A stretch of 57,949 nt of DNA from a bacterium (GTDB taxonomy: Bacteria > JACRDZ01 > JAQUKH01). Below are positions 4,116 to 57,944 of the stretch, one piece after another. Position 1 is the stretch's first letter, and each line of letters begins with the position of its first letter. The stretch covers positions 1 through 57,949 of the forward strand of contig JAQUKH010000014.1 of assembly GCA_028719205.1 (NCBI GenBank), written 5' to 3'. The notes under the pieces are model-generated. The model ran no database searches. It was given only the letters and a program-made list of their open reading frames with translations, and was not told the origin of the DNA. Both the position numbers and the translations under genes were made by a program.

Positions 4116-6859
4116 CAATGAAAAATAAACTTATTTGGTTAGTTTTTATCTTTTTTGTCTTTACCTCCTGTTATCAGGCAAGCGAATGGTATCAGACGCT
4201 CGAAAGTGATTTCAATATAGGGCTAAAAGAAAATATAGATACCCAAACTGATCCCGACCAGATCCAGCTTGCGATCAAAAACACGGGGAAAAAAGTATAT
4301 AACCTGTTATCCAGAAAAAATGGCGCGATAACCCAGTTTTTCCCGAGTGAATATACAAAAAGTTTTGACTCGGGCCCGGGCCAATTCCTTTTTGTTAATG
4401 ACGGCATAACTGACGCGGGGCTGAACAAAAATGCCAACTACCAAATAAGCGCTTACCTTTCAGATGACCTATCCGCTTATTCAAATCCTTTTCCTCAGGA
4501 TTTTATATTTAGCCTTCCCGAAAAGCAAACGATCTCCACATTTGTCCTGTATAACGGGCCGGGCAGCGACGCGGGCGGCGCGGATTCTGAAATTAATAAT
4601 TTCAAGCTGTATAGCAACAACGATGTTGTCACGCCGGACGATATACTTTCTATTGAAGAAGACGGAGGAGGCTGGTGTTATAAAGGTGTTTCAGGAGAGG
4701 ATATTGTTTTTCAGCCGCTTTCGCCAAAAAATGTTTTTGGCGACATTCCATTCGCTTCAAAACAAAAAAGCAAAGAGTTCTCGCGCGATACATGGGTTCA
4801 ATCTAAAGACCTGGAATTTAATTTAAATAAAGAAAATCCGAAATGGATCAAAATATATTTTAAAAAACCCACGGAAATTTCAAGTATATTTATCATGAGT
4901 GATGATGGGGCTAATGTTGACAATTTAGAAACAGATATATTCAATTTAGAAATTATCGTTCATTCTAACTCCTACGGGGACGAATCAGTATATGATAACA
5001 GCGATAATAAAATTGTGCAAAATGACTATTCCAAGGGCTTTTATAAAATATTCAATCCCGTATTGGCAAACGCGGTTACTATTAAATTCCACAGCCCAAA
5101 ATATGTTGAATGGCAAAAACTGATCATTTTTAAATCCCCATGGAAGGAAATAGTATCCGCAAAAGCCGATATCAAAGACAAGGATTACTCTCCTCAAGTA
5201 TTTACCTTTAATGCCACTGAACCATTTCAATATTTCAGATTATCGGTAGAAAGTAATCACGGAAACAAACGCTGGTTATCTTTTGGAGAAATAGAGGCGT
5301 ATTCTATCCTTCCCAAAAATATTGCCTCCTCTAAGAACGGAAGGGCTAAAATAATGTATACCACGCGCGGAGAAGGAAAAGAAATGCCTATGTCCGTGCT
5401 CAATAACGGGAAAATAACCTATAATGAAGGTTTTAATTTCGGTTTAGAACGGCCTGATACACTGCAATACGCTATTCTTGACCTCGGCGGAAGAAAAACA
5501 TTCAATCAGATCGCGCATTGGAATTGCGGCTGGTATGGGGCGCGTTCTGTAACGATTTATGCAAGCATGGACCTGGAAAATTGGAATAAAATAGGTTTGT
5601 ATGAAAACCTGAATTTAAGCAGGCCTCAAGCTGTTAATAAAGACACCTTTAACTTTGAACCTGTATCCGCGCGTTATGTAAAATTTGAATATAACTCAAA
5701 CAGCTGGAATTCTTATACCCTCAGAATAAGCGAATATGAAATTTTTTCCTGTCCGGTAGAATATGATCCATCCGGTTTGTATGTATCGCCTGTTTTAAAC
5801 TGCAAGCAGCCCGTAAAAATGGAATCGATCTCTTTCAACCAGGAACCGGAAGGCGATATTCCGTTAAATACTTCTATTGAACTTACCATAAAATCAGGAA
5901 CAAATAATAATTTATCCGGTACCCAAGCAATAAACACCTGGAAATTTGAAAATAATAACATCCCGAAAAGTATCTCTTTATCAGACAGCCATACAGGCAA
6001 TCAATATTTCCAATATCATGTAAAATTTAACACAAACATTCCGTTCATTACTCCGGTATTCAGCGATTTTAACCTTATTTACAAAACTCCGCAGGAACTT
6101 TACGCGGACGCGAATTATTGTTATGATATTGAAAAATATGAAGAGGCTTTAAAAAATATAAATATTTTCATCGAAAACTTTTCCGGGCAAACATGGATAG
6201 ACAAGGCTGCCGTTGACCTGAAAACCGCTATTTTACTCAAGATCGATGAAAAAGCTCAAAATATTTTTGATAAAGGAATGCAATCAGCCGGAGAAAATAA
6301 TCTGGAAATGGCGCAAAGAATATTACAATCAATTATCGCGCAATATCCGTCAAATAGTTTTAACGATAAAATTAAAATCCAGCTTGAAGAAATTGAAGCT
6401 CAAAAACAATATCAGGAATTAGTTTCTTCCTTTGAGAAAGATCCTGAGAACACAAGCATAAAATTAAAAGGCCTGTCAAATAATTTTCCTAAAACCAAAT
6501 GGGGGCAAACGGCTAAAGAAAAAGCTGAAGAATTTCTGGAAATAAAAATTAAAACATTATATGAACAAGGCATAGATCTTTTTAACGATAACAAATTCAT
6601 CGCGGCAAAAGGAATATTTGAAAAATTAATTGAAAAATTTCCTTTAAGTTCTTATGTCCAAAGAGCGGAGAACCAGATACTGGTCTGTAATGATAAAATT
6701 TTAGAGGATATGTTTTTCAAAGCATCTTCTTTATATAAAGAAGGCAATACGAAAGAGGCCGGCGAAATACTTTTTGATATGATCCAGATAAATCCCGGAT
6801 CCGAGTGGATAAAAAAATTACAAGGGATAATAGAAGAAAAAAATAATGAAAATAAATGA
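4112..6859 (+). CDS. Lipoprotein with discoidin (F5/8 type C)-like domains and C-terminal TPR/BamD-like repeats
   Basis: Lipobox FTSC; YFRLSV, ILDLGG..FNQI, PVSARYVKF motifs; repeated helical I..YP/FP.S units. Confidence 0.75.
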   Translation: MTMKNKLIWLVFIFFVFTSCYQASEWYQTLESDFNIGLKENIDTQTDPDQIQLAIKNTGKKVYNLLSRKNGAITQFFPSEYTKSFDSGPGQFLFVNDGITDAGLNKNANYQISAYLSDDLSAYSNPFPQDFIFSLPEKQTISTFVLYNGPGSDAGGADSEINNFKLYSNNDVVTPDDILSIEEDGGGWCYKGVSGEDIVFQPLSPKNVFGDIPFASKQKSKEFSRDTWVQSKDLEFNLNKENPKWIKIYFKKPTEISSIFIMSDDGANVDNLETDIFNLEIIVHSNSYGDESVYDNSDNKIVQNDYSKGFYKIFNPVLANAVTIKFHSPKYVEWQKLIIFKSPWKEIVSAKADIKDKDYSPQVFTFNATEPFQYFRLSVESNHGNKRWLSFGEIEAYSILPKNIASSKNGRAKIMYTTRGEGKEMPMSVLNNGKITYNEGFNFGLERPDTLQYAILDLGGRKTFNQIAHWNCGWYGARSVTIYASMDLENWNKIGLYENLNLSRPQAVNKDTFNFEPVSARYVKFEYNSNSWNSYTLRISEYEIFSCPVEYDPSGLYVSPVLNCKQPVKMESISFNQEPEGDIPLNTSIELTIKSGTNNNLSGTQAINTWKFENNNIPKSISLSDSHTGNQYFQYHVKFNTNIPFITPVFSDFNLIYKTPQELYADANYCYDIEKYEEALKNINIFIENFSGQTWIDKAAVDLKTAILLKIDEKAQNIFDKGMQSAGENNLEMAQRILQSIIAQYPSNSFNDKIKIQLEEIEAQKQYQELVSSFEKDPENTSIKLKGLSNNFPKTKWGQTAKEKAEEFLEIKIKTLYEQGIDLFNDNKFIAAKGIFEKLIEKFPLSSYVQRAENQILVCNDKILEDMFFKASSLYKEGNTKEAGEILFDMIQINPGSEWIKKLQGIIEEKNNENK

Positions 6860-8051
6860 AATTAAACAAATTCATAATTTATTTTCTAAAAATCTTGCCG
6901 TTAAAAAGAATGAAAACATATTGATATTCACGGATGCGAATGATCTCCCGCCTGCCGTCCGCCTGCCGGACGGGCAGGGACGGGCAGGTTCGCCCCTGCA
7001 AGAAATCACACAATTGATCGCGGAGGAAGGAAAAAAATTCGCGAATATAATACTTCATGTTTATCCATCAACAGGATCACACGGAGCGGAACCCCCGTTA
7101 TCGCTGTGGGAAATAGCTTTTGGCAGAGAAATAACCGGTAAATTCAGAAAACAAAAAATTCTCCGGCCGTTATTAAATAAAACGGCCACAGAAAAACAAA
7201 TTAAAATGGCGCATCGTATTGTAGGGGCGAACCCATGTGTTCGCCCTGTACCATTACGCCCTGTTTTGGGCAGACACATGGATCTGCCCCTACATCAAAA
7301 AATAAACGCCGTCATCGCCCTGTCCCGGTTTTCAACCACGCATACAAATTTCAGAAAACTTCTGACACAGTCTCTTGGTGTCCGGTATGCCAGCATGCCT
7401 CTTTTTGACGCTGAAATGCTTTCCGGCCCGATGGCCGTTGATGTCAATAAAATGGCTAAGAAAACTATTTCCATGGCAACAAAGTTAAGCCGCGCGAATA
7501 AAGCTCTGATCACTTCTTCCGATGGAACAAATCTTCATTTTAGTTTAAAAAAACGCGCGGGACAAGCGGATACCGGAATATTAGTAAAGGCCGGCGCAAT
7601 GAGCAACCTTCCCGCGGGCGAAGCTTATATCGCGCCGGTTGAAGGAACTGCGGAAGGAAAGCTTGTTGCCAAATTCAGCCAAACCAGAAAATTAATAAAA
7701 CCTTTAATATTCGAAATTGAAAAAGGAATGGTTAAAAATATTTCCGGAGAAAAAAAAACCAGCGAAAGACTTGAAAAGATCTTTGATAAATTTCCTAAGG
7801 CTCGCGTTTTAGCTGAATTCGGCATCGGAACTAACGAAAAGGCCAAACGGCCGGATAACATCCTGGAGGCAGAAAAGATCCTCGGCACAATCCATATTGC
7901 CTTTGGAGATAACTCAACGTTCGGCGGGAAAAATAAAGTGCCGTTCCATGAAGATTTTGTAATCTTTAAACCAACCGTAAAACTCTATTTTCAAGGCAAA
8001 AAAACTTTAACACTGATCAACCAAGGAAAAATAAAACTACCGGCACGTTAG
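6846..8051 (+). CDS. Aminopeptidase (M29/thermophilic metalloprotease-like) with two in-frame REP-derived inserts
   Basis: NLPAGEAYIAP, AEFGIGTN, EAEKILGTIHIAFGDN, H-x-D motifs. Confidence 0.88.
   Translation: MKINEIKQIHNLFSKNLAVKKNENILIFTDANDLPPAVRLPDGQGRAGSPLQEITQLIAEEGKKFANIILHVYPSTGSHGAEPPLSLWEIAFGREITGKFRKQKILRPLLNKTATEKQIKMAHRIVGANPCVRPVPLRPVLGRHMDLPLHQKINAVIALSRFSTTHTNFRKLLTQSLGVRYASMPLFDAEMLSGPMAVDVNKMAKKTISMATKLSRANKALITSSDGTNLHFSLKKRAGQADTGILVKAGAMSNLPAGEAYIAPVEGTAEGKLVAKFSQTRKLIKPLIFEIEKGMVKNISGEKKTSERLEKIFDKFPKARVLAEFGIGTNEKAKRPDNILEAEKILGTIHIAFGDNSTFGGKNKVPFHEDFVIFKPTVKLYFQGKKTLTLINQGKIKLPAR
6947..6988. repeat. 21-nt palindromic mini-element nested inside itself within a degenerate REP
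   Basis: CCCGCCTGCCG[TCCGCCTGCCGGACGGGCAGG]GACGGGCAGG = 42 nt; flanks rejoin to GCGAATGATCT|TTCGCCCCTGCA. Confidence 0.8.
7221..7293. repeat. REP doublet inserted in frame in aminopeptidase
   Basis: GTAGGGGCGAACCCATGTGTTCGCCC...GGGCAGACACATGGATCTGCCCCTAC. Confidence 0.85.
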
Positions 8052-8176
8052 TATACATATTAGTTCATGCCCCTATGCTCCATGCTTTCTTCACTTGTGA
8101 CTTGCCTGCCCGCCGTAGGAGGGTGACTTTGCAACTTCCGACTCTTTTTAACGCCATGCTCTATGCCCCATGCTTT

Positions 8177-10810
8177 TTATATCTGATCCCGTACCTCAAG
8201 ATATCTTTCTTTGCCTATCACCCCGAATTTTTTATCCGGAAACGCCTTCAGAGAAAGCGTAAGCCAGAACTCCACGTCTTCCGGAATCCCAAGCTTCGCT
8301 ATTTGTTTCCTGATGGAAAATTCAGCCTCCCAGCAATGAAGGTCGCGTTTCAGGGCGACTTTATATTGATCCAGCTTAAAATCTCTCATACGCGGGACAT
8401 AAATATTATCGTTGCGAAAACTGCCGATGAAGCTGCCTTCCCAATACCGTGTAAGAGGAACCCTTACAAGTGAATCTACGGTAGCAAAACTATTATTCGG
8501 ATAAAAATAGGTAAGGTTATGTTTATAGGTAAGATCCAGATACGTGGCCGGCGCGTAGTGAAGAGTGCTTTCAATGGATTTCAATTTACCCTTTCTCAAG
8601 GCCTGGACATTACCGGGATAAGTCGTATCGCTGACAGGATAAGTTATATCGGTACTGTCGCAATAGATATCGTATATTATAACCGTCTGCAGGTCGAAAT
8701 AATCTTTAGGACGCGCGGTTATATTTATATTCAGGTCATTAAATTTTGATTTTCTGTTTTCAACCGGAACTTTTTCGTCTTCGATTATTATTTTTTTTTC
8801 AGTCGTGTCATAATGAGATTTACGTTTTCTTCTTATGTCATAACCGATGCCCGCGGTAATAGTCGTTCTATAAAAAATAGTCCTGGCATTAAACGGTGAA
8901 TTCAAGGTCAACGAAGTAGATAAAGTATTTGTAACTATTCCTTTATAGGGATCTTCCTCGATCTCCTGCCATTGCCGCTTATATGAATGCGTGTTCTGCC
9001 ATGTAATGTAATCTGTAATTCTTGTCGAAAGCGTTCCCTGTGTGTCAAAACTGCTCACACGCCGCTGATTAGGGTCAAGCAAGCTCTTTTTATCGCGCCA
9101 ATCTTCGTTATAACCGACAGCCGGCATAAAAGAAATATTTATCAGCCGGCTTTTAAAAATTTCAAAATTAGTCTGCAATTTTTGGTATAAATTCGCGGTC
9201 TGGGTGCTGAATTTAGTAGCATACTTTATTGTGATCCTGTCCCGAGGATCCAGCTTAAACGGCCCGGAAAGTTTTCTTACCGTAATTTGTTTTTTTTCAT
9301 AATCTATAAAAACTATTTCTACCGGAATGTTATATACTATTGGAGAATTAGGATTAATATTAAGATTCACAGAATTATCACTGGCAAACGCGGATATAGT
9401 TCCTGTAGAAGGAAATGTCGCAAGCGTGACAATATAAGTGTCAGTATTTCCCGCGTCCGGGTTAAGGTCATCTTTCACTACATCAAAGGACTCTCTTCTG
9501 TCGCCGCGGTCATAGTTTATTACATAAGTAGCGTTTAGACTGTAATTTATCGCCGGCGTTGTTCTCCCGACCTGCGTGGGTAAAAGAGTAAAAGAAACAT
9601 CAGGAAGCCTTTCTTCGGTTTTTTTAAATTTCTTCAGGTCATCATCCCATAAATTTCTCTGGAACGTGGCTACCCGAAAAACAATATTGGGATATTGAAC
9701 AGTCGTGATATCAAAACTGGAATTAATATCTTTCGTAGCGTCACTCGCGCTTTCAATTTCTTTTGTGTACGCCGTATTACTTCTATAATGCAGGTCTAAT
9801 TTCGAATCTACTGTTAATTTATTTTCCTTTACCGTTTCTTTTACTATTGTTGTTTCTATTATCGTTGTATCTATCGCTGTTGTATCTATTGCCGTTGTAT
9901 CTATTGTATTGTAGGTAGTTTCAAAACTTGTACTTTCATATAACATTTGTTCATAATTCGCGTCCGCCTTCCATTCTTCAGCTACAGGCCCGGTATATGA
10001 ATAATCATCATTAGGATTCTCTGTTATTACCTTGCTGAAATATATAAATACTTTTCCCTTCCCTTTCCCTGAAAATAAAGTAAAATTGTGATCAATACCT
10101 GTTCCCCAGCCGACAAACTGCCACCAATCAATATAATAATTACCGCTATTATTATTACTAAAAAAATAGTCATATTTTGCCCGCAGGATAAGCCCTTTTC
10201 GTTTGTTATAGCCTACTTTATAATGCCAGCGGTTTTTATCATCTAATTTCTTTGTATAAAAAGGGAAATAGATCGTAGGAACATCTTTTATCATAAAAGA
10301 TACTTCCCTGCATACTAACCTTTTTTTGGGATAAAGTATTATTTCTTTGGCCCTGAATTTATAATGTGGAGACGGATTATCGCAGGTAGTAAAAAGGCTC
10401 CTCCCTGAAGAATAAAACTCATTTTTATCCACCTGTTCCATTTCCTCATTGGTATATGACCACGGTTCTATCCTGGAACTGGATTTTTCCATTGTGCCCT
10501 GATTTTTCTTTATATTGTAATTCAATGCCTCGCCTTTAAGTGTATTATCTTTTTGAATAAGCGAAACATTTCCTTCCGCGTTGATATTATCAGTATCAAC
10601 ATAAAACTTCATATGATCTGCCTGGAGCCTTGTCTCCCCCTGGGACAGATCAACATTTCCCTCGCCGACAATAAGATTCTCCTCCTCAATGTATTCCAAT
10701 TTGTCTGCTTTGATCTTTACAGGAACGCTCTCCGATGTATCGAAAGCATAGATTGATGGTGAAACTAATAATATTAAAATAATAAATAGTTTTATAGTTA
10801 ATTTTTGCAT
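8177..10810 (-). CDS. lptD: LPS-assembly protein LptD-like
   Basis: Signal peptide from ATG 10810; OstA-like N-terminus (IKADKLEY, GEGNV, LQAD), FTTCDNPSPHY, C-terminal RDLHCWE. Confidence 0.8.
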   Translation of the reverse strand: MQKLTIKLFIILILLVSPSIYAFDTSESVPVKIKADKLEYIEEENLIVGEGNVDLSQGETRLQADHMKFYVDTDNINAEGNVSLIQKDNTLKGEALNYNIKKNQGTMEKSSSRIEPWSYTNEEMEQVDKNEFYSSGRSLFTTCDNPSPHYKFRAKEIILYPKKRLVCREVSFMIKDVPTIYFPFYTKKLDDKNRWHYKVGYNKRKGLILRAKYDYFFSNNNSGNYYIDWWQFVGWGTGIDHNFTLFSGKGKGKVFIYFSKVITENPNDDYSYTGPVAEEWKADANYEQMLYESTSFETTYNTIDTTAIDTTAIDTTIIETTIVKETVKENKLTVDSKLDLHYRSNTAYTKEIESASDATKDINSSFDITTVQYPNIVFRVATFQRNLWDDDLKKFKKTEERLPDVSFTLLPTQVGRTTPAINYSLNATYVINYDRGDRRESFDVVKDDLNPDAGNTDTYIVTLATFPSTGTISAFASDNSVNLNINPNSPIVYNIPVEIVFIDYEKKQITVRKLSGPFKLDPRDRITIKYATKFSTQTANLYQKLQTNFEIFKSRLINISFMPAVGYNEDWRDKKSLLDPNQRRVSSFDTQGTLSTRITDYITWQNTHSYKRQWQEIEEDPYKGIVTNTLSTSLTLNSPFNARTIFYRTTITAGIGYDIRRKRKSHYDTTEKKIIIEDEKVPVENRKSKFNDLNINITARPKDYFDLQTVIIYDIYCDSTDITYPVSDTTYPGNVQALRKGKLKSIESTLHYAPATYLDLTYKHNLTYFYPNNSFATVDSLVRVPLTRYWEGSFIGSFRNDNIYVPRMRDFKLDQYKVALKRDLHCWEAEFSIRKQIAKLGIPEDVEFWLTLSLKAFPDKKFGVIGKERYLEVRDQI
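9845..9905. repeat. 15-nt coding tandem repeat (DTTAI/DTTII/ETTIV)
   Basis: GTTGTATCTAT repeated at 15-nt period. Confidence 0.75.
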
Positions 10811-12162
10811 AACGCCTTTCTCGCCTCTCCCACCGTGTAAAGCGACCCGGTAATGCAAATAATCTCATTTTTTTGGACGACCCCTTGCAGGCGCCGGATC
10901 AACCCTACCATTCTTTTGATCGCCTTTCTTATCGGATAAACTGCTTCAACATCTTTATGATACTTTCTGACGATCTTCGCCTGTTCATCTAAAGAAGATG
11001 CCCTGTCGCAATGGGGAGAGGTAACTATGATTTTATCCGCAAGCGGCATAAGTTCTTTCACAATACCGGATATATCCTTATCCTTTAATATTCCCAAAAT
11101 AAAATTTATTTTTTTGTCAGGGAAATATCTTCTAAGGCTTTTAGCTAATACTGAAGCACCCGGTGGATTATGCGCGCCGTCTATTATTATCGTCGGGGCA
11201 CGGCAAACAATTTCAAAACGACCGGGCCATTTCGCGTTTTTCAGGCCTTTTCGGATATCATTCAAATTTATTGTAATGGCTCCGATTTCGGAGTCCCTAC
11301 CTAAGATTTCAATAACAGCAAGCGCCATTGAGGCATTTTGTATCTGATATTCACCTAAAAGGCTTATATCATAATCCGTTGAATTTTCATAAATACCTTT
11401 ATAAGAAAATTTCTGGCTTATAGGGACCCGAATCCCTTTTTTCAGGGCGGGCACCTGCCTGCCGGACAGGCGGGCAAGACCCGCCCCTACAAAATCTTTG
11501 CTTAAAAGATATATTTTGGAATTCTTTTTTTTACATATTTTTCTGATGACATTTAAAGGCTCTTTTTCCGTAACCCCACAAACAAGCGGCACATTTTTTT
11601 TGATTATCCCCGCTTTTTCAAACGCGATCTTTCCTAATGTATTACCTAATTCCTTTGTATGGTCAAACCCAATGCTTGTAATAATGGAAACTAACGGCGT
11701 AATTACATTTGTCGCGTCCAGCCTTCCGCCCATTCCAACCTCAATACAGGCAAAATCGACTTTTTCCTCTTTAAAATACTCGAACGCGATTGCCGTTGAA
11801 ACCTCAAAATAGGTAAGATCTCCCAATTTATTATTTGTTTTTCTCACCAGGGGGATCAGCTTTTCAACAATTTCCGTTAACTTTTTCCGGGGAATTAAAA
11901 CACCATTGATCTGGATCCTCTCGCGGAAATCAACCAGATGCGGAGAGGTATAAAGGCCTGTCTTTAAACCCGATTCTTTTAAAACCGAGGCGATAAAACT
12001 GGAGGTTGAACCTTTCCCGTTCGTCCCTGCAATGTGGATCGATTTGAAAGTGTCCTGGGGATCATTTAATAACGACAGGAGATAGGTTATCTTTTCTAAT
12101 CCGAACTGGATCCCAAACCTTTCAAGGCTGTATAAAAAATCGATTGCTTTATCATAATTCAT
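10798..12162 (-). CDS. folC: Bifunctional folylpolyglutamate synthase/dihydrofolate synthase
   Basis: HIAGTNGKGS, YTSPHL, EVGMGGRLDATN, WPGRFE, DGAHN, TGSLY. Confidence 0.97.
   Translation of the reverse strand: MNYDKAIDFLYSLERFGIQFGLEKITYLLSLLNDPQDTFKSIHIAGTNGKGSTSSFIASVLKESGLKTGLYTSPHLVDFRERIQINGVLIPRKKLTEIVEKLIPLVRKTNNKLGDLTYFEVSTAIAFEYFKEEKVDFACIEVGMGGRLDATNVITPLVSIITSIGFDHTKELGNTLGKIAFEKAGIIKKNVPLVCGVTEKEPLNVIRKICKKKNSKIYLLSKDFVGAGLARLSGRQVPALKKGIRVPISQKFSYKGIYENSTDYDISLLGEYQIQNASMALAVIEILGRDSEIGAITINLNDIRKGLKNAKWPGRFEIVCRAPTIIIDGAHNPPGASVLAKSLRRYFPDKKINFILGILKDKDISGIVKELMPLADKIIVTSPHCDRASSLDEQAKIVRKYHKDVEAVYPIRKAIKRMVGLIRRLQGVVQKNEIICITGSLYTVGEARKALCKN
10875..10908 (-). repeat. Degenerate REP with 9-nt loop insert, inside folC
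   Basis: GTAGGGTTGATCCGGCG[CCTGCAAGG]GGTCGTCC versus GTAGGGGCGATCCGGCGGGTCGCCC at 29058. Confidence 0.65.
11445..11490 (-). repeat. REP carrying a 21-nt insert, inside folC
   Basis: GGGCGGGCA[CCTGCCTGCCGGACAGGCGGG]CAAGACCCGCCCCTAC; encodes VGAGLARLSGRQVPA. Confidence 0.8.
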
Positions 12163-12237
12163 AAATTTTCTAGTATTATAGCTCAATTCCATGTTTTTTT
12201 TAAGAAATTATTGCCAAAATTCACAAAAATAATTAGC

Positions 12238-25306: not shown

Positions 25307-26149
25307 CTATTTTTCAATCAATCTACTGATCGTTGAATAATGCATACGTAAATAGTCCGCTATTTCCTTCTGGCTGTAACCATATTTTTTTATCGCCTCA
25401 TTGATCAGCTCATTCCTGGTTTTTTTCTTAATATCTTTATTTCCAAATAAAACTTCCAAATCTGGCCTGGCCAGATATCTTTGTTTTTTTGGGATTTCCT
25501 TTATATCTTTATTGCCTGCCAGATATTCTATCAGTTTATCCGTGAATTTCTGCCCTCCCAATATACTCTGGCCTTTTACTTCTTCCCATATAGATCCCTG
25601 CCCTTTACCTTCCCTTACAAACTCCATATACTTTTTTCTCGCTTCCTTTTCCCTTTTCCCGAATTGGCTCAATATCCAATCCACAGTTAACCAATTCTCA
25701 GTTGTTTTCAGCCCCGCCGTACTATTGTAACTGCTCCAATTCCATTTTTTAGCTTTCTCTACCATTCCCGCTCTTACCGGATTCAACACTACATATCTGC
25801 TTACTTCCAATAAATAACTGTCTCTCTCTATCACTATTGCTTTATATCTCCCTTGAAATATATGCCCCGCGCTTTTATGCCGTTTATTATAAGCTTGCGT
25901 ATATACTCCATTTATATGCCTCATCCCTTTCGATAAATTACCATCCGGGGTTTCTAATATCAGGTGAAAATGATTATCCATTAAACAATAGCCGTGACAT
26001 ATCAGGTTGTAAGATATTACAGCCTGTTTTAATATTTTTATAAATGTATTCCGGTCAATATCATCCTTGAAGATATCTCTCTTAGCATTGCCTCTGGATG
26101 TTACATGATATATCGCTCCTTCATATTCTATTCTTATTGGTCTTGCCAT
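25307..26149 (-). mobile_element. REP-associated tyrosine transposase (RAYT, Y1_Tnp) with C-terminal HTH
   Basis: MARPIRIEY..YHVTSRGN, YCLMDNHFHL (HUH), GHIFQGRY, YVVLNPVRAG, WSSY; HTH YSQKEIADYL..HYSTISR. Confidence 0.92.
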
Positions 26150-39102: not shown

Positions 39103-39192
39103 GGGCGTATGCCACCCGCCTGCCGGACGGGCAGGTACGCCCCTACGAATTAAATACGGACAAAAAAGGGCGAGTTTAGAACTCGCCCCTAC
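39103..39192 (-). repeat. Two REPs at right edge of island, the first with a 21-nt insert
   Basis: GGGCGTATGCCA[CCCGCCTGCCGGACGGGCAGG]TACGCCCCTAC and GGGCGAGTTTAGAACTCGCCCCTAC. Confidence 0.85.
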
Positions 39193-39292: not shown

Positions 39293-39434
39293 GATTACAC
39301 AGATTTCAATGCTCGATTACACAGATGCCTTACGGCTGATTACACAGATCCACCACGGCGGACAAGTTTAAATGCTCGATTACACAGATGCCTTACGGCT
39401 GATTACACAGATTTCAATACACGATTACACAGAT
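39293..39434. repeat. Array of six GATTACACAGAT 12-mers with short spacers
   Basis: Exact copies at 39293, 39315, 39338, 39378, 39401, 39423. Confidence 0.9.
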
Positions 39435-40545: not shown

Positions 40546-40722
40546 CGTTTAATTAAATTATTTTTTGATCCATCTATAGAAGAAGGATAGTTCAAATACA
40601 TTTTCGAATTATATACCTTTTAGATGGCTATGTCCAGAACCGTATGGTTCAAGAAGGAGCCCTGTACCATCTATAAATATCATATACAGATAAGATGGCG
40701 GAGCCCTGTACCGTACGGTACA

Positions 40723-40748
40723 GGGCGGAGAGATAGGGAGTTGAACTC
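40723..40748 (-). repeat. Imperfect copy of tRNA-Ser 3' end
   Basis: GAGTTCAACTCCCTATCTCTCCGCC versus GGGTTCAAATCCCTCTCTCTCCGCC in the tRNA. Confidence 0.7.
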
Positions 40749-42017: not shown

Positions 42018-42121
42018 TTTTTTCTCTTTGCCTGTGACTCCCGCCGCGGCGGGCAAGTGTGACTTTGCAACTTCAACTTTTCTTGCTGGTGACGTGGTGA
42101 CTTTGTGACTTGTGACCTATC

Positions 42122-57113: not shown

Positions 57114-57944
57114 TCACCCTTTTAACCTTACTAATAAGGAATTATTATTAAATTCCTCCTCTATAAAAGAGCAGGAATCGTATTGACCTGCCTGTTCGGC
57201 AGACAGGCAATATTCTTTTAAGATCTCATGCGCGTTTGTTATATCTTCAAATTGAGTTTCAATGCCGGGAACATTCGGATTATTATCAGGATGGAAAGTA
57301 ACAGCCAGTGTCTGATACGCCTTTTTTATCTCGTCCTTAGTTACAAAATTATTCATAAGCAGCATTTTCCTCCTTGCCCAATCAATTTTCCCAAAATTCA
57401 ATTTTTTTATCTCAAGGGTATAAAAACTATAAGGAGGTAACGGCCCTATGCATTTAAAATTTAATTTATTTTCATATTTAATATTTAATAATTCAATCCC
57501 TTCCTCAAAATCTTTCAAATTTCGTTTATTTATTAAAAAGGCGGAATTTAAAACCATCCTATCATCCATAACATCATGGGCTCTCATATCCTCGCTGATC
57601 TTGTTCAAAAAACAATGTATCCCTGAAGAATATTCTTCCCTTTTTCCTTCTAATCTCTTGCTAATCATTTTTCCTATTATTATCCGATCTTCTATGGCTA
57701 TTTCTGCAGAGTGAGCTAGAAGCCTGTCTTTAAATTCCCTGATTTCACTTTCTTCGCCTATCTCTTTTATGAATGAAGGAAAATCATTCCACGTAACAGC
57801 GACATCAATCTCTATCTTATCGTTTATTTTATCCAAAACATCTTTTATGAGGTTATATCCTTTATCTAAAACATGTTTGATCTCTCCCTCATCCTGAATA
57901 AAGGTCCTTATCTTTACAGGGATAACCGTGATCCCGGAATTCAT
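57114..57944 (-). CDS. GvpL/GvpF protein with C-terminal DnaJ domain (5' end likely beyond window)
   Basis: LNSAFLI, GPLPPYSF, then EIKKAY..LA..FHPD.NP...F..I..A..IL. Confidence 0.88.
   Translation of the reverse strand: MNSGITVIPVKIRTFIQDEGEIKHVLDKGYNLIKDVLDKINDKIEIDVAVTWNDFPSFIKEIGEESEIREFKDRLLAHSAEIAIEDRIIIGKMISKRLEGKREEYSSGIHCFLNKISEDMRAHDVMDDRMVLNSAFLINKRNLKDFEEGIELLNIKYENKLNFKCIGPLPPYSFYTLEIKKLNFGKIDWARRKMLLMNNFVTKDEIKKAYQTLAVTFHPDNNPNVPGIETQFEDITNAHEILKEYCLSAEQAGQYDSCSFIEEEFNNNSLLVRLKG

Follow-up and report, generated by a model that had tools for sequence, protein, structure and literature searches.

Among described systems, those closest in kind to the element reported here are the small dispersed repeats (SDRs) of the Nostocaceae, a comparison made by description and not by sequence. 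The repeats SDR4–6 are reportedly hairpin-forming and 21–27 nucleotides (nt) long, and are said to reach hundreds of copies in some genomes, to be nearly absent from relatives and to nest; to our knowledge, no enzyme is known for them. One published account, in the part concerned with these repeats, names HIP1 as an SDR5 insertion site and reports SDRs only from one cyanobacterial family (PMC5861425). A second point of reference is provided by repetitive extragenic palindromic (REP) sequences and their REPIN forms, which passages in Di Nocera 2013 (PMC3733652) and Bertels and Rainey 2011 (PMC3116915) describe as mobilised by REP-associated tyrosine transposases (RAYTs); where the former deals with complex, GC-rich, self-pairing REP loops and with intragenic REPs, they appear as loop variants and not as a separate guest. 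Here we describe a 21-nt GC-rich sequence, CCCGCCTGCCGGACGGGCAGG, from a 57,949-nt window (the whole stretch of DNA that was analysed, contig C14 of the bacterial genome G000, which comprises 2.59 Mb in 68 contigs at 37.5% GC), and compare it with two genomes from the same genus, G001 and G002. This sequence is very probably mobile DNA, and we consider it probable that it is one copy of a family of 20–21-nt GC-rich, hairpin-forming, non-autonomous mobile elements that spread by copy-and-paste and favour single-stranded loops.

The 21-nt element in the window and in orthologues

All three sites of the element in the window are loops of GTAG-type REP hairpins. The exact 21-mer (39115–39135, plus strand) occupies the loop of an intergenic REP at 39103–39146. 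A variant with three mismatches, CCTGCCTGCCGGACAGGCGGG (11454–11474, plus strand), lies in the loop of the REP at 11445–11490, in frame in a FolC/Mur-ligase-family gene on the minus strand (folC, 10798–12192). At 6947–6988 (plus strand), 42 nt reading CCCGCCTGCCG, TCCGCCTGCCGGACGGGCAGG and GACGGGCAGG in succession hold one copy within another: the inner copy (6958–6978, one mismatch) splits the outer one (6947–6957 and 6979–6988) after base 11. This nested pair sits in a decayed GTAG-type REP (6936–6999, plus strand; GCGAATGATCT ... TTCGCCCCTGCA), whose 5′ part has been lost relative to G001, and is translated in frame, within ..PPAVRLPDGQGRAGS.., in the long open reading frame (ORF) of a Peptidase_M29-family gene (M29; 6846–8051, plus strand) that also holds a REP doublet at 7221–7293. 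At up to three mismatches the window contains three matches to the 21-mer, versus none in 100 dinucleotide shuffles. Genome-wide, G000 has three exact copies, and matches with up to four mismatches fall at 11 distinct places.

The host REPs belong to a family of the form GTAGGGGC..GCCCCTAC, of the GTAG class set out in the corresponding passages of Di Nocera 2013 (PMC3733652). In 89 strictly defined G000 REPs the spacing between the 8-nt arms is bimodal, measuring 3–6 nt in 83, 9 nt in one and 23–26 nt in five with no intermediates, and all five long loops contain a 19–21-nt CCYGCC...GGCAGG insert. REP loops account for five of the 11 places in G000, where at least four REP backbones are combined with three different inserts. 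Without its 21 nt, the REP at 39103–39146 reads GGGCGTATGCCATACGCCCCTAC and is letter-identical to a REP at C1:128126.

Orthologues from the same genus provide three clean empty sites, in M29, folC and a gene on contig C13. At the M29 site G001 (75% protein identity) carries an intact REP, ACAGGGGCGAATGATTA^TCCGCCCCTGCA (..GGGGCGAATGATTA^TCCGCCCCTGCA..), in the same codons and lacks the 42 nt; the REP itself is missing from a more distant relative. The folC REP is 48 nt long in G000 and 27 nt at the same place in G001, and G002 has none. In the C13 gene a 36-nt insert made of two 18-nt relatives of the element has no counterpart in G001 and G002, which are otherwise 82–83% identical. A possible intermediate at the M29 site was found among Logan contigs, which, and not reads, formed the basis of our assembly check (the probable source run is X1; runs X2–X6 hold small shares and carry no habitat information). 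A 424-nt contig of run X2 aligns over 6791–7229 with 37 substitutions and 21 gap letters and has TA at 6945–6946, as in G001; most simply it represents a relative with a single copy at this site, although the alignment does not give the position of the gap itself. The M29 site would then present a series of no copy (G001), probably one (the X2 relative) and two nested (the window), which would fit a first hit followed by another into its loop.

Further orthologue comparisons concerned other sites in G000. A relaxed-pattern hit on C50 was a false positive, being ordinary conserved coding sequence; the N-terminus at the C23 site could not be aligned; the sequence at the C8 site has been replaced; and no orthologue of the C22 gene was found with the query used.

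The initial annotation of the window had placed an exact copy, a variant and a self-nested pair in REPs, the last of them decayed, and held that removing the insert restores a plain hairpin. The sequence bears this out, and its reading of the insert as a discrete, oligonucleotide-sized unit gains support from the three empty sites and the bimodal REP loops.

Spread, landing sites and coding copies

A scan with CCYGCCTGCCGGACRGGCRGG of one genome per species (185,579 species), in which a few matches in GC-rich genomes are expected by chance, yielded at least 125 loci. The 80 matches listed fall in at least 12 phylum-level groups: 45 in Bacteroidota (including cultured Niabella, Flavobacterium, Flavivirga, Aureibaculum, Psychroserpens and Maribacter), 13 in the candidate phyla radiation (CPR)/Patescibacteria, four each in Omnitrophota and Nitrospirota, three in Planctomycetota, two each in Chloroflexota and Bacillota, and seven others that include one metagenome-assembled genome (MAG) of Woesearchaeota. 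Homology between copies stops exactly at 21 nt, and the flanks are unrelated, with at least 15 of 20 flank bases common to only 11 of 8,128 copy pairs. Copy number varies in bursts among genomes and phyla. At up to one mismatch, the counts in five genomes are 129, 120, 17, 10 and 2, versus none for a reversed control pattern; at up to three mismatches there are nine in G000, one in G001 (none credible, the control also giving one) and one in G002, an exact copy on C12 that lies in the loop of another hairpin just upstream of a gene.

The arms of the element read CCYGCCYG and CRGGCRGG around the centre CCGGA, with a visible 4-nt periodicity, and both strands fold into stems of 6–8 bp (either a 6-bp stem with a 4-nt tail or an 8-bp stem). 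Two main alleles, CCCGCCTGCCGGACGGGCAGG and CCTGCCTGCCGGACAGGCAGG, make up 95 and 68 of 176 copies. One genome, G036, has at least 92 letter-perfect copies among those listed; 12 of its 18 listed single-mismatch variants fall in the central CCGG, and all 12 are C-to-T or G-to-A changes, a pattern compatible with either methylation of CCGG cytosines or a frequently single-stranded loop.

Virus-related DNA carries the element as well. IMG/VR has 45 stretches with it, and in a Bacillota MAG five prophage-like contigs totalling 80 kb hold 37 copies at up to two mismatches, within tape-measure, sheath, portal and terminase genes; 32 of the 129 copies of this genome lie in these contigs, which make up about 2.7% of its DNA. 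A BLAST search of cultured phages and plasmids with the 42-nt block returned only short, chance-level matches (E 0.001 to 8) in GC-rich hosts (Streptomyces, Rhizobium and Halorubrum viruses). In Halorubrum tailed viruses, at about positions 92–146 of the records, exact 20–22-nt matches to the doubled right half (GACGGGCAGG twice) occur near the genome ends and are probably chance matches in GC-rich terminal repeats.

Nesting at the central 1–3 nt of a related element was found for eight of 210 unique copies, from eight different organisms. Two of these loci (L122 and L195) have exactly the nested architecture of the window, and in at least three (L059, L106 and L108) one allele has inserted into the other, so that a simple duplication of the arms is ruled out; three further copies stand in tandem. 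Flank stems of at least 7 bp across the junction accompany 13 of 176 copies versus 12 of 1,055 control junctions, with unrelated hairpin repeats and heptad arrays among the hosts. At position −1, 85% of copies have a purine and 3% have T, and at position +1, 74% have T or G. No target duplication was seen among the 210 copies: 2-nt flank repeats number 21 versus 15.3 expected and 3-nt repeats seven versus 3.0, none reaches 5 nt, and there is a slight excess of 1-nt repeats (64 versus 44 expected). The counts of nested copies and flank stems, together with the five REP loops in G000, put insertion into hairpin loops and into the element's own centre well above chance, in agreement with the hairpin targeting proposed in the initial annotation. 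Its description of the element as a parasite of REPs is nevertheless too narrow, since the same 21 nt occur in many phyla in non-REP contexts, most copies have no flanking stem and about half lie in ordinary coding DNA. REPs are the most exposed hairpins in G000, and the element therefore looks like a REP parasite there.

An open frame extends over 303 nt in 95 of 174 copies, about half. Where exactly one frame is open (70 copies), 47 are read in the sense and 23 in the antisense direction; all six phases occur, and those encoding Cys are rare, a pattern that looks like selection after insertion. Fourteen loci of the Bacillota genome offer 37 testable 21-mers, of which 31 leave the reading frame uninterrupted, and 15 testable 20-nt relatives (CCCGCCTGCCGGCGGGCAGG, CCTGTCTGCCGACAGGCAGG), of which 14 stand at points where the flanking long frames fit only without the element. 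The 21-nt copies kept in genes thus add seven residues while the 20-nt relatives break the frame, and a multiple of three is therefore what survives in genes, not a rule of the process. The earlier proposal that the length is a multiple of three and that frames survive holds for the coding copies of the window but describes no property of the family, relatives of the element being 17–20 nt long. At two loci in G036 (L236, on G036:C197, 380–4090; and L240, 2412–2947), 20-nt elements interrupt the genes of several other mobile elements: IS607-type genes (TnpB and a MerR-resolvase that is split), the reverse transcriptase of a group II intron and an IS3 integrase, both likewise split. Other mobile DNA of this genome has thus been struck heavily by the hairpins.

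Competing explanations and a possible route

How a family of mobile elements of this size might move can be outlined only tentatively. New copies would be made by copy-and-paste from an existing copy and transferred via single-stranded DNA, the work being done by a sequence-specific, hairpin-specific enzyme supplied in trans. Such a single-stranded route would explain the loop preference, the lack of target duplication and the folding of either strand with a 4-nt tail.

Several points weigh against this reading. Movement is deduced from the comparison of sequences. No helper enzyme was found: the richest genome (129 copies, an incomplete MAG) gave no Y1/HUH transposase match, with three candidates scored. 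Since no flank stem can be detected around about 85–90% of copies, loop targeting amounts at most to a preference, part of which could come from the tolerance of such sites to insertion. Four of the REP-borne copies in G000 have a common ..AT(G/A)ATTA loop type, and because of this shared loop some of them may have spread as REP-plus-insert composites and not by separate hits; all seven or eight REP-borne copies there have one orientation, for which either model could account. Some chance matches are expected in GC-rich genomes, and the C50 hit was a false positive of the relaxed pattern. Finally, the nested join in the window has no independent contig confirmation, as the listed X1 contigs break at 6947 and 6988.

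Candidates for the helper and for a parent element were considered and set aside. RAYTs are an unlikely helper: PF01797 matches number 0, 13 and 5 in genomes with 129, 120 and 2 copies, and these counts, from incomplete MAGs, do not track copy number. A half-site scan for a full-length parent with the two halves as its ends, covering G000 and 80 kb of a copy-rich genome, returned nested or decayed copies only, none of them enclosing cargo the size of a gene. Genes near dense clusters in two copy-rich genomes yielded no shared candidate; they comprise prophage structural genes, housekeeping genes, IS607/TnpB, IS3, IS110, IS66 and the reverse transcriptase of a group II intron. An IS110 transposase gene begins 86 nt downstream of one copy, which the insertion sequence (IS) does not split.

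The alternative that survives best, although we regard it as unlikely, is that the 21 nt are a mere loop variant of the G000 REPs and that REP-plus-loop composites are copied as one unit by a RAYT. REP families with long GC-rich self-complementary loops, with inner regions of up to 27 bp, figure in the relevant parts of Di Nocera 2013 (PMC3733652), and G000 itself has three Y1 (IS200/RAYT-type) transposase matches, at 25790–26116 of the window (minus strand), C26:1964–2137 and C3:88623–88832. The match on C26 is flanked by two GTAG REPs, not by the 21-mer, and since these REPs abut it, it is likely to be the RAYT of the REP family. The ATTA loop type and single orientation common to three or four of the REP-borne copies would also follow from composite copying. 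What such copying fails to accommodate is the occurrence of the same 21 nt in many phyla with unrelated, non-REP flanks, the 129 copies in a genome without a Y1 match, the orthologous REPs of G001 at the M29 and folC sites that have no insert, and the combination of several REP backbones with different inserts in G000. As the whole story, this explanation is largely refuted.

Less probable still is a repeated local origin, in which template switching at quasi-palindromes copies the opposite arm and CCNG-periodic sequences arise by convergence. The 4-nt periodicity of the element is in keeping with such a process, as is a look-alike at 57187–57207 (minus strand, four mismatches, near the 20-nt CCTGTCTGCCGACAGGCAGG type), which lies in frame in an ORF: G000 is 12 nt longer than G001 there, and the extra 12 nt nearly complement the adjacent CAGGCAGG, itself present in G001, with gain and partial loss both fitting the difference. 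Yet convergence cannot yield some 90 letter-perfect copies in one genome (G036), the same 21 nt across phyla or nested pairs of different alleles, and at the three clean empty sites the new copies match a pre-existing copy in the genome and not their own flanks.

We consider it more doubtful again that the 21-mer serves as a conserved site for binding or regulation, of the parS kind, kept for a host function and not through mobility. A short palindrome-like sequence near-perfectly conserved across phyla, with some copies just upstream of genes (for example G002:C12), could suggest as much, but the element arises in coding sequence as a 21-nt indel and not by point changes, varies from about 1 to 129 copies among genomes and differs in number within one genus, nests in itself, is concentrated in the prophage-like contigs of the Bacillota genome and has 20-nt relatives that break genes. 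Least probable of all is that the nested copy at 6947–6988 is an artefact of short-read metagenome assembly at a palindromic repeat: no listed Logan contig of run X1 spans the 42 nt with the flanks of the window, but the ORF stays open and in frame throughout, the relative's contig crosses the site, eight unrelated assemblies show the same nested architecture, and at least 12 short contigs with other flanks, from three runs, carry the 42-nt block.

If the reading as a mobile family is correct, as few as 21 bases behave as mobile DNA in a large part of the bacterial tree, setting a lower size limit for transposable elements and pointing to an enzyme active on DNA hairpins. The family would also be a concrete source of short in-frame indels in conserved proteins and of REP loop variants that have been treated as drift. 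Annotators would be warned not to take the inserts for sequencing errors and to expect genuine frameshifts from the 20-nt relatives, and the exact 21-mer would offer a searchable marker for finding the helper by phylogenetic profiling. More speculatively, and with clear reservations, the element might be the smallest self-contained mobile DNA known, a 20–21-nt hairpin recognised as such by an undescribed enzyme class, copied into single-stranded DNA and moving between phyla, perhaps including archaea, with phages as carriers. On that view, a single process would have left behind the 'complex loops' of REPs, numerous Pro/Gly/Ala/Arg indels of 7 residues in bacterial proteins, and the nested GC-rich palindromes seen in CPR and other uncultured bacteria. 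Where 20-nt forms break the frame of prophage or IS genes that are otherwise intact, they would either have knocked out mobile DNA recently or be skipped during translation.

Related hairpins and comparison with known systems

Other short hairpins in the window had been listed in the initial annotation as related inserts, and for three of them the relationship stands. The hairpins at 8104–8122, 42040–42057 and 39350–39366 (all plus strand, 17–19 nt) have the design CCYGCCCGCC..GGCGGG in common. The first, a 19-nt GC-rich mini-hairpin of the CCTGCCCGCC..GGAGG class, lies between GTGACTT repeats and recurs in design at C41:6482 and as a tandem pair at C41:10550; the second, 18 nt long (CCCGCCGCGGCGGGCAAG), lies between GTGACT repeats; and the third, 17 nt long and GC-rich, lies inside a GATTACACAGAT tandem array and resembles a copy at C39:9027. 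The other two do not belong with them on present evidence: 40700–40724 is a different palindrome, and at 10875–10908 CCTTGCAGG stands in a poorly paired REP-like stretch where an insert could not be shown.

The surroundings of these hairpins recur elsewhere in G000. Tandem arrays based on GATTACACAGAT, each with a central 17-nt GC-rich hairpin (CC(A/G)CCACGGCGGACAAG), occupy 39300–39420 of the window and about 9000–9060 of C39. Heptad-like GTGACTT / TTGCAAC repeats with 17–19-nt GC hairpins between them occur at 8090–8150 and 42020–42080 of the window and at 6400–6500, 9240–9260 and 10550–10590 of C41, once with the GC hairpins as a tandem pair.

REPs and other hairpins within genes also vary among relatives. 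The second REP site of the M29 gene (7221–7293) is an inverted, REPIN-like doublet in frame in G000 and one symmetric REP in the same codons of G001, with no REP in a relative that belongs to a different family of this phylum; REP content at this fixed intragenic site turns over. Beside the folC REP, at 11422–11437, G000 has an extra small hairpin, AGGGACCCGAATCCCT, which accounts for about 15 nt found in neither G001 nor G002, and at another site, alignment columns of about 340–355, the folC of G002 has its own GC-rich in-frame insert, ..GRGTARRPAPYGSGCR.., and G001 a shorter insert. Intragenic hairpin inserts are common in this genus.

Our literature search found no published description of the 21-mer and no paper text containing its 17-mers; searches on in-frame GC-rich palindromic elements in Patescibacteria genes returned none, and those on Rickettsia palindromic elements in other bacteria nothing relevant among the papers listed. 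Among known systems, IS1397, ISKpn1 and members of the IS110 family insert into REP hairpins and are full ISs of at least 1 kb with their own transposase. The 21-mer resembles them in its use of REP hairpins as preferred insertion sites and differs in that the half-site scan revealed no cargo between its halves. It also differs from IS-derived miniature inverted-repeat transposable elements, having no target-site duplication and, in that scan of G000 and 80 kb of a copy-rich genome, no terminal repeats shared with a full-length IS. The GC clusters of yeast mitochondria and the 'byp' elements of Magnusiomyces are small GC-rich palindromic inserts in AT-rich genomes, nested, clustered and found in genes, but they are organellar, longer and lineage-specific, and byps are skipped by the ribosome, whereas nothing points to ribosome bypassing of the 21-mer. 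Rickettsia palindromic elements, a form of selfish DNA, are said to be about 100–150 bp long and lineage-restricted and to lie in frame in protein genes as extra loops; the 21-mer likewise inserts in frame in conserved genes, yet is only 21 nt long and crosses phyla.

With REPs, as far as the relevant passages of the reports cited above describe them, the 21-mer shares a short, GC-rich stem-loop that has four unpaired nucleotides at one of its ends, the lack of target duplication and in-frame intragenic copies. It differs in having neither a GTAG nor a CGTC tag (its tail is CCCG, while the host REPs carry GTAG/CTAC), in having no link to a RAYT, in not being confined to the family of one species and in being a guest inside REP loops. 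The likeness to SDRs goes further: the 21-mer falls in the same size class of 21–27 nt, forms a hairpin, is abundant in some genomes and rare or missing in close relatives, and inserts into other repeats and into itself. Two features set it apart from them, in that about half of its copies are intragenic and that it occurs in many phyla and in viral contigs, whereas SDRs, in the part of the account cited above, come from one cyanobacterial family.

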